Under the pieces are notes generated by a model. It was not told the DNA's origin. It was given only the letters and a program-made list of their open reading frames with translations, and made no database searches. Below, one piece after another: positions 3,160-50,066 of a stretch of DNA of 64,000 bases (its first letter is position 1; each line of letters starts with the position of its first letter). The translations under genes and the position numbers were made by a program. The DNA is from a virus, in the IMG/VR virus record IMGVR_UViG_3300043331_000441, positions 66,557 to 130,556 of that record; one strand, 5' to 3'.

Positions 3160-3318
3160 CTATTTCGTCGGCGGCAAATCAGTGACCGCGGTCTGTGTCC
3201 CGGAGACAATCGCGCAGACCGGGTCGTAAACGACAGCGACGGCCTTGATCAGAGGTGGCGTGGCAACCTGAGTTGCGCCCCCGGAACAAACGGGGTCGTA
3301 AACGACGCCGCGGCTCAT
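3160..3318 (-). CDS. 52-aa peptide with a duplicated VVYDPVC motif
   Basis: Translated by hand: MSRGVVYDPVCSGG...AVVYDPVCAIVSG...; fills the gap between neighbouring genes. Confidence 0.5.
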   Translation of the reverse strand: MSRGVVYDPVCSGGATQVATPPLIKAVAVVYDPVCAIVSGTQTAVTDLPPTK

Positions 3319-3337
3319 GGCCCTAGAGTCTAGGGCC
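3319..3337. promoter_or_regulatory. perfect 8-bp hairpin abutting the start codon of the 3160..3318 ORF
   Basis: GGCCCTAG-AGT-CTAGGGCC. Confidence 0.35.
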
Positions 3338-3348
3338 GGAGGCGGACA

Positions 3349-47150: not shown

Positions 47151-48779
47151 TTAGATCTTGCCAGCGATGAAGTCGCTAATCAAGTTCGGCGTCGCCGTAT
47201 CGAAGCCGACGACATCGAGTTGACCAGCGTCCTGCGGATCGTTGATCTGCGTTGCATATGAAACCATCGCGACCGTGACGCAGCGGGCGTTGATGCCGCT
47301 CTGCTTGCGGTACTGCACCAGCGCCTGCGCCGGGTGGTAACGATGCCCGGCCCACGTCTGATGGTCGGTGTAGAGCACGAAGCCGTCGAACTGCTTGCGC
47401 TTCTTGATCGCGTACTCCATCGGCAGCGAGCAGTCGGTGCCGCCACCCGTCGCCGGGAAGGAGTTGAGCGCGTCATCGAGCCGCTGGCTAGACGAGATGC
47501 CCGCGGCATAGACCGACGTATCGAAGCCGATCACCTCGACGTCCGGCTCGACGTTGAGCGTGATCAGGGCCATCGCGACCCCTGCCTCACGCGGCGACAG
47601 CGGGGCGCCCTGAATGCCGTAGCCCATGCCCATCATCGACCCGGACACGTCGACTGCCAGCAACAGCTTCTTGTTGGTCGGCTCAACGTTCTTGAATGCC
47701 GTGTAGAACGCAGCATCGAGTGCGTCGGTGATCTTCGGCTTCGGCGTCCAGCCCTCGCCGCGCGACTGGTAGCCGTGGCCCGACGCATACGTGCGTAGCG
47801 CGAACAGCACCGCCATCGGATGGATCCGCGACTTGCGAATGTACTCGGCGTCCGCGAGCTGATCGAGCACGATCTTGAGTAGCGCCGTGTCCTCCAGCGT
47901 GCGGTTACGAGTCATCGTCGCAAGGTTGCGGATCAACGCCGTCATCGGCATCCCCGCCTCCAGCAGGGCGCCCCAGACGTCGGTCGAATTGAGATGTTCG
48001 GTCTTGAGCGCCTCCCGCGGCAGACGGAACTCACGGATCAGTTCAGCCGTCCGAGCCGTGGACGGAGAATCCTGTGCAGCCTCGAACGCGCCGAGTAGAG
48101 CTGGCTTGTCAAGCTGATCAGAACCGGATCGATCGGACTGGGTCGGAGTAGGCTTGTCATTGCGCACGATCCACTCGAAGATCGCGGCATTGTCCTTGTG
48201 GGCCGGGTGTGCAAGCCGAAGCAAGTCACGATGGCTCCAGCCGCCGCGCGAGCGGTACTTGATCGCCTGGTAGGCAAGCTGATCTGGATTACGGTCGTAC
48301 CAGTTGGAAACGGCCCACCGCATCGTCCGGCCCCAACCGCGCATCGTCTCTGCGTACGCAACGAACGAGTACAGATGCGTGCCGATCCGCGCGACCTTCG
48401 GCAGCGCCTCAGCCGCAGCCCGCTTCGTCACGTTGTCGCCATGCGAGATCGCGTAGGCGAGCGCATATAGCGCCTGATCATTCTTCGGCGCACGCCCCTC
48501 GTCAGAGATCGTGACAATCTCGTTGACGGTCTTGACGCCGTCCTCCTTGAGGCACTCGCCGAGCGCGATGATGTTCTGCTTCGTCAGCTCACGCTCGCCG
48601 ACGTAGTACGCGCCACCCTCGGTGCCGAGCACAAGGAAGCGCCGTAGCCGCGCCCACTTGTCAGCCTGCCAGGCGTAGCCCCCGGCCTCGTTCTTGACCT
48701 GATCTGCCCGCATCGGCTCCGACTGCGGAGTCCGACGGGTGCCCCCGTGCTGCAGCAAAGCGTTCCGCTGCTTGGCCAT
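47151..48779 (-). CDS. rsr: Ro60/Rsr RNA-binding protein (TROVE + vWA domains)
   Basis: 542 aa; RLRRFL.LGT.GG.YY, Q.IKYR.R.GWSHRDLLRL.H, MP.TALIRNL..M, vWA LAVDVSGSM...TD..TW, DVVGFD. Confidence 0.95.
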   Translation of the reverse strand: MAKQRNALLQHGGTRRTPQSEPMRADQVKNEAGGYAWQADKWARLRRFLVLGTEGGAYYVGERELTKQNIIALGECLKEDGVKTVNEIVTISDEGRAPKNDQALYALAYAISHGDNVTKRAAAEALPKVARIGTHLYSFVAYAETMRGWGRTMRWAVSNWYDRNPDQLAYQAIKYRSRGGWSHRDLLRLAHPAHKDNAAIFEWIVRNDKPTPTQSDRSGSDQLDKPALLGAFEAAQDSPSTARTAELIREFRLPREALKTEHLNSTDVWGALLEAGMPMTALIRNLATMTRNRTLEDTALLKIVLDQLADAEYIRKSRIHPMAVLFALRTYASGHGYQSRGEGWTPKPKITDALDAAFYTAFKNVEPTNKKLLLAVDVSGSMMGMGYGIQGAPLSPREAGVAMALITLNVEPDVEVIGFDTSVYAAGISSSQRLDDALNSFPATGGGTDCSLPMEYAIKKRKQFDGFVLYTDHQTWAGHRYHPAQALVQYRKQSGINARCVTVAMVSYATQINDPQDAGQLDVVGFDTATPNLISDFIAGKI

Positions 48780-48813
48780 GCTGAACCTCCTTTGGCAAGA
48801 GACGCACTAACGT

Positions 48814-48945
48814 CCACCGGGCGTGGTGTGGGAGTCGGGTGGGAGGCTCTCGCCTTGATCCCGGGTGAGCGTTGCGGATTCGAACCGCTACAGCGCTTAC
48901 CGCCGCCTGCTGGAAGATAACCGACCGGCCCTCCGGCCCAAGTGG
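48814..48945 (-). ncRNA. Y-RNA-like unit A (terminal Ro-type stem, T-arm-containing interior)
   Basis: Minus strand 5' CCAC-TTGGGCCGGAG...GGTTATC, T-arm GCGG-TTCGAAT-CCGC, 3' CACACCACGCCC-GGTGG. Confidence 0.75.
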
Positions 48946-49004
48946 AAAAACAACTATAGCGAACTGCGGAGGAAATGCAAGTGCCTATTTGCAGGTATTT
49001 CGCG

Positions 49005-49150
49005 GCGGATGTGTGGTGAGGTCGGGTTTACACCCATCAGATTGCTCTGCTGAGCGATCTTGCGACGCCTTGTCGCCTACCCGCCATGAGAGGCGGGTAC
49101 CGGAATCGAACCAGTCAACGAGATAACCGAGTCTCTTTCGACCCAACCGC
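49005..49150 (-). ncRNA. Y-RNA-like unit B (YrlA-like circularly permuted tRNA module)
   Basis: 5' GGGTCGAAAG (fits the GNCGAAN0-1G Ro-site motif as I recall it), T-arm ACTGG-TTCGATT-CCGGT, looped acceptor ACCCGCC-TCTCAT-GGCGGGT. Confidence 0.8.
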
Positions 49151-49170
49151 GAGTGCGAGAGTCTAACAGA

Positions 49171-49297
49171 GAGGGGGCGTGTGAACGAGATCGGTTTGAG
49201 GCTGCTGCTCTTCCAACTGAGCTACACGCGAAGCGTGGCGGGACTTGAACCCGCGACCCGCAGCTTGGTAGGTAACCGAAACCCTCCGGCCCACCTC
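49171..49297 (-). ncRNA. Y-RNA-like unit C (classic YrlA T/acceptor/D module)
   Basis: GCTGC...GCGGG-TTCAAGT-CCCGC-CACGC-TTC-GCGTG-TA-GCTC-AGTTGGAA-GAGC-A-GCAGC; the anticodon stem continues into the terminal stem. Confidence 0.85.
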
Positions 49298-49313
49298 ACA
49301 AATGAGTATAGGC

Positions 49314-49429
49314 GAGGGGCGTGTTGTGAGGAACGGTCGCGTGCTTTCGCACGTTCGCAGGGTTTGAACCCGCCTTCCCAGGTCGTAACCTGGTTTGTCC
49401 CGATAACCGTCAGCCTCTCCGGCCCACTC
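49314..49429 (-). ncRNA. Y-RNA-like unit D (T-arm plus two hairpins)
   Basis: 5' GAG-TGGGCCGGAG...GGTTATC; GCGGG-TTCAAAC-CCTGC; CGTGC-GAAA-GCACG; 3' CACAACACGCCC-CTC. Confidence 0.75.
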
Positions 49430-49467
49430 ACTCACCGGTAAGGACCTACGTTACGAGCGTATCAAAT

Positions 49468-49605
49468 GAGAGGGGGGCGTGGTATGCGATGGGCCGTGGA
49501 AGGGCCGGAATCGAACCGGCGTCTTCGGCGTTCTAGGCCGATGCTCTACCTCTGAGCTACCCCAGCGATGTGCTGGATAACCCAAGCGCTCCGGCCCACC
49601 CTCTC
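49468..49605 (-). ncRNA. Y-RNA-like unit E carrying a canonical-order tRNA body (anticodon AGA) with a truncated acceptor stem
   Basis: GGGG-TA-GCTC-AGAGGTA-GAGC-A-TCGGC-CTAGAAC-GCCGA-AGAC-GCCGG-TTCGATT-CCGGC-CCTT-CCA inside the shared terminal stem. Confidence 0.8.
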
Positions 49606-49643
49606 TGTGCGCCTCTTGCCGAGGCACACATCATCTTAAGCAA

Positions 49644-49712
49644 TCCCGGGCGTGTTGTGCTTGAGGGGTCTGTTCTCCAATGAAGGTAACCCTCGAAGCT
49701 CCGGCCCAAGGA
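49644..49712 (-). ncRNA. Y-RNA-like unit F (minimal, ~65 nt, no tRNA module)
   Basis: TCC-TTGGGCCGGAGCTTCGAGGGTTACC...ACCCCTCAAGC-ACAACACGCCC-GGGA. Confidence 0.7.
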
Positions 49713-49721
49713 CAAAAATGT

Positions 49722-49854
49722 GGCGGGCGTGGTGTGAAGATCGGTGTTTTGGCGTCCTTGGCCACTAGACGACATAGCCCGAAGGCCACGGCGGGATTCG
49801 AACCCGCGTATCCCTCTTATCAGGAGATAACCGATGCTTCTCCGGCCCAACCGC
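49722..49854 (-). ncRNA. Y-RNA-like unit G (permuted tRNA with a retained GAT anticodon-like loop)
   Basis: CTC-CTGATAA-GAG loop, GCGGG-TTCGAAT-CCCGC, CGTGGCC-TTCG-GGCTATG acceptor, GTC-TAGTGGCCAAG-GAC D-arm. Confidence 0.82.
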
Positions 49855-49865
49855 ATGAGACTCTA

Positions 49866-50066
49866 TCAGGCCGCGACCGGAGCCTTCGGAGGGCGCCCGC
49901 GACGCTTAATCTGGCGGCCTCCAAGCTCCTCTGCCTCTGAATCGGTGATGTCCAGGATACGCACACCCTTCTTGGGATCGTGGAACTTGATCGTCACCGA
50001 CGCACCTGTGCCCTCGGGGATTTCCTGTCCCGAGCGATCACTCACAAACACTTCCTTCTTAGCCAT
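49866..50066 (-). CDS. Lsr2-like small DNA-binding protein (dimerisation-like N-terminus plus RRGRPPK AT-hook)
   Basis: MAKKEVFVSD.SG...V.I....LD.TD.EA..L...RRGRPPK; strong AAGGAGG SD. Confidence 0.65.
   Translation of the reverse strand: MAKKEVFVSDRSGQEIPEGTGASVTIKFHDPKKGVRILDITDSEAEELGGRQIKRRGRPPKAPVAA

Follow-up and report, generated by a model that had tools for sequence, protein, structure and literature searches.

The locus described here raises the question of what occupies a 1,046-base stretch of phage DNA (48811-49856, minus strand) that lies directly upstream of a Ro60 gene, in the same orientation, and holds seven non-identical units (U1 to U7). The stretch belongs to a 64,000-nucleotide window, the whole DNA analyzed, which is the second half of a 130,556 bp IMG/VR record (IMGVR_UViG_3300043331_000441) rated 92% complete. 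The stretch probably consists of seven distinct genes for Y RNAs that are arranged in tandem and go with the Ro60 gene immediately downstream. This assignment is based on the presence of a common terminal handle in all seven units, their predicted folds, covariation, linkage to Ro60, a Ro-binding motif, matches to the cores of the YrlA and tRNA models, and the canonical nature of the Ro60 itself. A previous sequence-only reading had seen here RNAs of the Y type upstream of Ro60 that share one Ro60-type handle but differ in their inner modules, with tRNA mimics among them, and the analysis supported this view.

Sequence and fold of the units

The units and the gene that follows them were located as follows:

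49719-49856, minus strand: U1, handle with a YrlA-type permuted tRNA mimic (fold z-score -2.4)
49641-49713, minus strand: U2, minimal Y RNA made of handle and short hairpin, without a tRNA-like part (from its fold)
49467-49605, minus strand: U3, handle around an unpermuted cloverleaf (fold z-score -3.8)
49310-49434, minus strand: U4, handle with a hairpin (49378-49393), a T-arm-like hairpin (49358-49372) and a further hairpin (49340-49353) (fold z-score -2.3)
49165-49299, minus strand: U5, handle with a YrlA-type permuted tRNA mimic (Rfam YrlA core match)
48998-49153, minus strand: U6, GGGUCGAAAG-type handle (exact GNCGAAN0-1G) with a T-arm (49100-49114) and three further hairpins (fold z-score -2.9)
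48811-48946, minus strand: U7, handle with a hairpin (48890-48907), a T-arm (48874-48888) and a further stem (from its fold)
47151-48779, minus strand: Ro60 gene, 542 amino acids, with TROVE and Ro60 vWA domains (Pfam, PHROG and PDB matches)

The 5' motif GGG(C/T)CG(G/A)A(A/G) starts at 49848, 49707, 49597, 49425, 49292, 49144 and 48939 on the minus strand, is followed after 5-8 nucleotides (nt) by GGTTA(T/C)C in all seven units, and each unit is closed by the 3' motif CA(C/T)A(C/A)CACGCCC or a variant of it. The seven tandem units and their motifs are thus where the earlier reading had placed them, with minor deviations in two units only: the 3' motif of U5 is shortened (CACACGCCC), and U6 starts with GGGTCGAAAG and ends with CACACATCCGCC. 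The general layout opens with a unit-specific start and (U)GGGCCGGAG (replaced in U6 by GGGUCGAAAG); 5-8 free bases separate this from GGUUA(U/C)C, and a variable interior 22-100 nt long leads to the 3' motif and the complement of the start. Mean pairwise identity among the seven units was 0.78 in the 5' handle and 0.48 in the modules. The bacterial Ro-binding motif GNCGAAN0-1G is exact in U6 and appears as GCCGGAG, with one A-to-G change, in the other six units; orthologous units in related contigs alternate CGAAG with CGGAG.

A strict search that combined the 5' motif, the 3' motif and pairing of the ends recovered exactly these seven units in the 64-kb window, and an nhmmer profile of the 5' handle found the same seven, and no others, in the whole 130.5-kb phage. 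Seven clustered units with none elsewhere in the genome are far beyond chance expectation. A looser search, in which any 5' core with a complementary 3' partner was accepted, returned hundreds of chance matches and was dropped, and typing of D-arms and unit ends by regular expressions was rejected as unreliable.

In the minimum-free-energy folds the 5' end pairs with the 3' end in a common register in all seven units. The order from the outside inwards is a unit-specific outer helix of 3-7 base pairs, a GGGC/GCCC helix (GGGU/AUCC in U6), a bulged C, two G-C or G-U pairs facing a CAYAM internal loop or small 3' bulge, and an inner stem of free sequence whose 5' strand terminates in the GGU of GGUUAUC. 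The outer and inner stems quoted in the sequence-only reading were all present, except for one C-A mismatch in the outer helix of U1 in this phage. Fold z-scores ranged from -0.7 to -3.8 over the seven units; as these values are modest, the argument rests on covariation rather than on energy alone. The units lie beside Ro60 on its strand, join their ends through a bulged helix and carry a second, variable module, as Y RNAs do.

Covariation and orthologous arrays

Orthologous arrays were found in three related contigs, namely L003/L004 (seven units, Ro60 82% identical) and L005 (eight units, Ro60 86% identical), where unit order, outer helices and handles are preserved. Analysis of three-way alignments with RNAalifold yielded four to nine compensatory pairs per unit, with 46-69% identical columns in the units versus 72.5% in the Ro60 gene. 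Modules have been replaced between these close relatives while the handle stays.

In order to extend the comparison to many phage contigs, 46 short units were aligned to a covariance model (R1) built from five short units, U2 among them; the length limit of this model meant that only short units were found and long ones were mis-aligned, and it was used for the covariation count alone. Handle cells formed standard pairs in 95.5% of cases, versus 76.8% after shuffling and about 50% in slid controls. Both sides changed in 8 of the 11 handle pairs, and the pair that follows the bulged C was G-U in 23 sequences and G-C in 21. The covariation score was 0.516, versus 0.214 in shuffles (0 of 500 shuffles reached 0.516), in an alignment that was fitted to the R1 structure and so favours that structure somewhat. 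A permutation test of the outer helix with a free partner position gave a weak signal, six of six pairs being formed in 29% of real units versus 6.5% of swapped controls. Altogether, covariation in the orthologous arrays and in the short units of many phages supports the predicted stems of the units.

Modules of the individual units

The seven modules fall into four classes: permuted tRNA mimics (U1, U5), a cloverleaf (U3), T-arm plus hairpins (U4, U6, U7) and a minimal hairpin (U2). A T-arm is present in six of the seven units, the number claimed from the sequence alone. The arm order described for YrlA (T-arm, closed acceptor-like stem-loop and D-arm, with the Ro stem replacing the anticodon stem) was found in U1 and U5, and was not found in U2, U3, U4, U6 or U7.

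In U1, the T-arm (49791-49807) is followed by a closed acceptor-like hairpin (49773-49790) and a D-like arm (49754-49773), with nine compensatory pairs over three orthologues, some of them in the T-arm and the acceptor-like hairpin. The equivalent parts of U5 are a T-arm at 49238-49254, an acceptor-like hairpin at 49225-49237 and a D-arm at 49207-49222. The search with Rfam YrlA and tRNA models that had been recommended for these units gave partial matches to YrlA in U5 (41.6 bits, E 2e-7, model positions 23-85 of 114) and U1 (17 bits) and to tRNA (RF00005) in U3 (53.5 bits, model positions 6-65 of 71), although no unit came up to the YrlA gathering score of 69.

U3 comprises a D-arm (49543-49557), an anticodon arm (49525-49541, loop CUAGAAC) and a T-arm (49504-49520) on an acceptor stem of 4 base pairs, two of them G-U, which continues into the Ro handle. 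ARAGORN called it tRNA-Ser(aga), yet it has no long variable arm; the AGA anticodon is not known to be used by bacterial tRNAs. A full tRNA was rejected for U3, since the model is covered in part and the four-pair acceptor merges into the handle instead of forming a 7-bp stem with a free 3' end. The orthologue in L003 retains the loop letters UAGA, while that in L005 (3191-3310) has lost the T-arm and carries an anticodon-type loop, UUUUUAG, on a CCGGG/CCCGG stem. A cloverleaf within the handle was seen in 12 of 304 handle matches, mostly in the clade of the window and in one distant contig. In a distant phage contig (L070/L071, 5475-5640), whose Ro60 is 47% identical, the handle encloses an ARAGORN tRNA-Ile(gat) cloverleaf, as in U3, and three more units follow, all of them downstream of Ro60.

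U4 showed six compensatory pairs across orthologues, and its module has no similarity beyond close relatives. Compensatory changes were also found in the U6 orthologues of L003 and L005. In the U7 orthologues of the same contigs the module is swapped for unrelated sequence without a T-arm, with handle and position kept. Modules with relatives at distant loci are those of U1 (84% identity over 80 nt with a unit of a contig whose Ro60 is 55% identical), U5 (resembling units of Gordonia phages Cashline and Sixama) and U3; those of U2, U4, U6 and U7 occur only in close relatives. One DNA contig from a soil metagenome joins 49206, in the T-arm region of U5, to 49808, in that of U1, through 21 intervening letters of other sequence, and this may be an assembly artefact at tRNA-like repeats, sequence of another organism or a variant of the array.

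Distribution across phage and bacterial Ro60 loci

The frequency of such units was evaluated at 80 phage Ro60 loci selected by protein similarity alone (the best 80 of 488, not de-duplicated), with handle matches accepted at 11.5 bits or more, and at 80 bacterial Ro60 loci of more than 590 found (Chloroflexota, Verrucomicrobiota, Armatimonadota and others). Counts per locus are lower bounds because other variants of the handle exist.

Units per locus, phages: 0 in 19, 1 in 25, 2 in 11, 3 in 10, 4 in 8, 5 in 4, 6 in 1, 7 in 2
Units per locus, bacteria: 0 in 14, 1 in 19, 2 in 13, 3 in 23, 4 in 9, 5 in 2

This handle scan, of the kind suggested by the sequence-only reading, detected at least one unit at 61 of the 80 phage loci; all matches were on the Ro60 strand, none was inside the gene, and nearly all were within 1.1 kb upstream of it. 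At least three units were present at 25 of the 80 phage loci and at 34 of the 80 bacterial ones, which contradicts the earlier statement that one or two per locus are usual and suggests that several Y RNAs per Ro60 locus are normal in phages and bacteria. The largest arrays belong to the clade of the window (seven or eight units); elsewhere up to six were found, and one contig had eight spread over 3 kb. The maximum in any sampled contig was eight.

Loci with more than one Y RNA are on record. Chen et al. 2014 (PMC4201824) counted 355 YrlAs in 254 bacteria and 22 phages, noted three bacteria with two or more Y RNAs, and reported four small RNAs upstream of the rsr gene of Deinococcus. The Ro60 of Thermus phage phiLo binds two upstream Y-like RNAs (Yrl1/Yrl2) and the host PNPase (PMC12135203), and Y RNAs were suspected near a Ro-like gene in a Listeria phage study. 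The earlier suggestion that a multi-unit array had not been described holds in part: no paper on arrays of at least five units, nor on phage arrays of this size, was found in the searchable literature, but loci with several units are common. The array is thus neither unique nor categorically new, and represents an expanded variant of a known Ro60-RNA system.

Units were also present, unannotated, in cultured phages. Cashline has two upstream of its Ro gene and Myrna has two. In Sixama (Gordonia; L128, 5673-6010) and Blueeyedbeauty (Streptomyces; L129, 720-1160 and 1870-2040), the tRNA cluster next to the Ro gene has unannotated handle units in alternation with its annotated tRNA genes. In Jedediah (Mycobacterium; L046, ON755189.1, 2622-2961), the Ro-like gene is immediately preceded by two annotated hypothetical proteins, gp232, overlapping a partial Rfam YrlA match (2726-2803, 36 bits), and gp233, covering a match to the handle profile (2871-2893); both small coding-sequence calls may be Y-RNA genes.

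The Ro60 gene, its surroundings and the phage

The array is flanked on the minus strand by a 66-codon ORF (49866-50066) on one side and by the 542-codon Ro60 gene (47151-48779) on the other, with 32 nt between the end of U7 and the Ro60 start codon. As had been claimed, the downstream gene encodes a canonical Ro60: its product matched vWA_Ro60 (PF25045, 9e-49) and TROVE (PF05731, 2e-41), belongs to PHROG 850 (RNA-binding protein), and matched the PDB chains of Ro60 (9nen, 1yvp) and of Deinococcus Rsr (2nvo) with E values from 1e-99 to 1e-107. A portal gene comes next downstream of Ro60, and sugar and methyltransferase genes lie upstream of the array. The locus is set between a glycan-synthesis operon and the portal gene, without an RtcB/RtcA neighbour. 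The 66-aa ORF directly upstream of the array has a strong ribosome-binding site and a basic tail (RRGRPPKAP); no Pfam or PHROG match was obtained for it, and its N-terminal half may resemble the dimerisation domain of Lsr2, a protein of actinobacteria and their phages.

The DNA comes from a soil phage that is uncultured, has a genome of about 130 kb and probably infects actinobacteria. The array stretch was present in soil and rhizosphere metagenomes, and no GenBank phage was matched when 20 kb of the window served as a megablast query. The distant relatives of the portal protein all come from actinobacteriophages, which suggests an actinobacterial host, given that the phage database is itself rich in such phages. 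The phage has two true tRNA genes (His and Asp). RtcB, an Rnl-type RNA ligase, the head domain of CCA-adding enzyme/poly(A) polymerase, and RNase PH/PNPase domains were not found in this 92%-complete genome, and any partners of the modules would therefore be host proteins.

Expression signals and spacer elements

The following elements were noted between and around the units:

48953-48980, minus strand: promoter-like TTGCAT, 16 nt, TATAGT before U7, conserved in both relatives, L003 and L005 (sequence reading)
49860-49865, minus strand: -10-like TAGAGT, 17 nt before the U1 core (sequence reading)
49305-49310, minus strand: -10-like TATACT before U5 (sequence reading)
49160-49165, minus strand: -10-like TAGACT before U6 (sequence reading)
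49607-49629, minus strand: conserved spacer hairpin with core GCCUCGGCAAGAGGC, between U2 and U3, part of no unit (from the relatives)
48786-48815, minus strand: small hairpin with a compensatory change in the relatives, followed by the Ro60 ribosome-binding site AAGGAGG (sequence reading)

Hexamers of the form TANNNT are found 17-21 nt before the core of U1, U5, U6 and U7. Among 176 distinct units from all loci, 34 had TANNNT at -19 to -16 from the core, versus about 8 expected. The TTGCAT/TATAGT site before U7 matches three of six positions in the -35 hexamer and was not listed by a strict consensus scan. No U-run terminator was found between U7 and Ro60. The enrichment of TANNNT, the site before U7, the occurrence of a U-run after U1 only, and the uninterrupted passage from U7 to Ro60 make it likely that the units are produced by a mixture of their own promoters and processing. 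The spacer hairpin GCCUCGGCAAGAGGC is nearly unchanged in L003 (~3325-3345) and L005 (~3168-3188), and a -10-like hexamer precedes it.

Alternative explanations

Several results weigh against the assignment of the stretch to Y-RNA genes. The YrlA gathering score (RF02553) was reached by no unit, the best being U5, and Rfam Y_RNA matched none of the seven; for comparison, YrlA-like units of cultured actinophages scored 34-47 bits on Rfam YrlA, also below 69, and this model aligned its own, different handle in only two cultured-phage units. The fold energies of U5 and U7 are unremarkable (z-scores -1.0 and -0.7), and the alignment of 46 short units carries the bias mentioned above. A strict sigma-70 scan found no promoter, the single terminator-like site falls inside the handle of U7, and a clear U-run follows only U1. 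Exact contigs from two soil metatranscriptome libraries cover 49149-49400, 49618-49840, 48771-48927 and 49621-49771 at a depth of 2-4, and coding DNA is covered too; as these matches are contigs only, carry-over of DNA is possible and the uncovered parts carry no meaning.

Part of this evidence would fit a structured leader of the Ro60 mRNA, acting chiefly in cis, in which seven Ro60-binding sites control the synthesis of the protein or the stability of its message. All units share the strand of Ro60, the 32 nt that separate the end of U7 from the start codon hold no terminator, a conserved promoter-like site stands just before U7, and the strict scan revealed no promoters or terminators that separate the units. 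Such a leader is nevertheless quite unlikely, as in other phages and bacteria the same units follow Ro60 or are interspersed with tRNA genes several hundred bases from it, units at large show an excess of -10-like hexamers at a set distance in front of them, the characterised Y RNAs are all discrete stable RNAs (PMC4201824), and a feedback site has no need of seven different modules, two of them conserved at distant loci. It is also unlikely that the RNAs chiefly divert, as decoys or sponges, the tRNA-directed defences of the host or its enzymes that handle tRNA (anticodon nucleases, PARIS-type effectors and similar systems), with Ro60 serving only to stabilise them. This possibility gains from the T-arm in six of seven modules, from the three extended tRNA mimics, from a report that the Ro60-like gp130 of Bas63, encoded beside tRNA-like genes, counters the ppl defence (preprint PMC11482910), and from the presence of only two true tRNA genes in the phage, which implies that the mimics are not part of a translation set. 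However, the anticodon arm exists only in U3, is replaced by the handle in U1 and U5, and U2 has no tRNA-like part at all; anticodon nucleases, among the targets put forward by the sequence-only reading, could hence be decoyed by at most one unit, whose loop is not retained in the L005 orthologue. Moreover, no defence or counter-defence gene was linked to the locus in this analysis.

A decayed tRNA gene cluster, whose common flanks would act in processing or as promoters and terminators and have nothing to do with Ro60, is very improbable. ARAGORN and Rfam do call one tRNA, T-arms are frequent, and units stand among real tRNA genes in Sixama and Blueeyedbeauty, but the order of T-arm, closed hairpin and D-arm in U1 and U5 is impossible for a tRNA, nothing in U2 resembles one, the flanks form covarying pairs with one another and contain the Ro-binding motif, and units occur only next to Ro60 (at least one at 61 of 80 phage loci, always on its strand). 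Hardly any credit can be given to the idea that the stretch encodes small proteins, for instance in the 99-aa and 90-aa frames of the minus strand. Stop-free frames of 60-100 aa do exist on both strands, yet chance frames are expected in DNA of 61% G+C, and whole units are inserted or replaced between relatives. As the earlier reading had held, there is no credible ORF in the array: none is conserved, and frames change in phase and length between close relatives with Ro60 DNA 82% identical.

Proposed mechanism and implications

With the stretch read as an array of Y-RNA genes, the common handle would dock on the outside of the ring formed by the phage Ro60, in the manner known from Xenopus, Deinococcus and Salmonella, and the seven inner modules would yield seven Ro60 particles. 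These would differ in the host tRNA-binding or RNA-decay protein tethered, on the model of the tethering of PNPase by Yrn1, or in the gating of the Ro60 cavity. Some units would be transcribed from -10-type promoters of their own, and processing of a transcript that continues into Ro60 may release others, above all U7. The earlier notion of a constant handle with variable cargo fits what is seen here, but it is not a new principle: the modular model, with conserved stems and a variable loop, is textbook knowledge for Y RNAs (PMC4726728, 10.1101/312249), and the array extends it to a set of uncommon size, diversity and compactness.

Two broader and mutually independent readings are offered tentatively, under a single judgement, as possible though doubtful: that Ro60 and the array form a multi-adaptor system recruiting different host enzymes or RNAs, or that the handle is homologous to animal Y RNAs and stem-bulge RNAs (sbRNAs). 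If the former were true, the phage would in several ways at once steer the RNA decay, repair or tRNA handling of its host, or neutralise RNA-based defences, and related phages would exchange modules rapidly as their hosts changed. If the latter were true, Ro60 and its RNA would have moved as a pair between bacteria or phages and animals.

Seven modules on one handle constitute a natural panel for pull-downs and genetics on the variable half of Y RNAs, for which the tethering of Yrn1 to PNPase is the established case, and close relatives that replace modules but keep handle and unit order add to its value. The unannotated units in cultured phages of Gordonia, Mycobacterium and Streptomyces make the system accessible at the bench and their annotations correctable. 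Multiple Y RNAs per locus also exceed what YrlA-centred catalogues imply.

Comparison with known systems

As in the Ro60/Rsr-bound Y RNAs of bacteria and phages, namely Yrn1/Yrn2 of Deinococcus, YrlA/YrlB of Salmonella and M. smegmatis, the YrlAs of mycobacteriophages (PMC4201824) and Yrl1/Yrl2 of phiLo (PMC12135203), the units adjoin Ro60 on the same strand and have paired ends with a GNCGAA-type motif. The second module is often a tRNA mimic of T-arm, closed acceptor-like hairpin and D-arm in YrlA, as it is in U1 and U5, and, as mentioned above, more than one Y RNA per locus is on record there as well. In contrast to those systems, the array has seven head-to-tail units, or eight in a close relative, and their modules show four or more architectures; CGGAG takes the place of CGAA(N)G in most units, all have GGUUAUC, none scores at the YrlA threshold, and the locus lies between a glycan-synthesis operon and a portal gene instead of beside RtcB/RtcA.

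Metazoan Y RNAs and nematode sbRNAs share with these units a lower stem with a bulged C followed by a G-U/G-C pair, a 5' strand GG(U/G)CCG(A/G), UUAUC where the upper stem meets the loop, and a variable loop; they also form multigene families (four in humans, at least 18 in C. elegans). UUAUC is conserved in nematode sbRNAs and vertebrate Y RNAs (review PMC4726728) and is contained in the handle of the window. The nematode sbRNA model (RF01656) aligned end-to-end with U2 (18.3 bits, E 0.19) and with a unit of Gordonia phage Cashline (31.8 bits, E 9e-5 in a search of 401 nt), and both share with it the blocks GGNCCGGAG, GGGUUAUC and CAC..AAC..GNCC. Unlike the animal RNAs, however, these two score below the gathering threshold of 38, the array has no RNA polymerase III context and no La-binding U tail, and its tRNA-like modules have not been described for animal Y RNAs. 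According to the same review, bacterial Y RNAs are not homologous to the vertebrate clades. Judged by sequence, the handle looks like that of animal Y/sbRNAs and some of the modules like those of YrlA; the likeness of the handle to animal Y RNAs may reflect homology or convergence on one Ro60 surface. With the tRNA clusters of actinobacteriophages, finally, the array has in common tandem small structured RNA genes with T-arms, but its units are closed by a Ro handle and not by an acceptor stem with a free CCA end.

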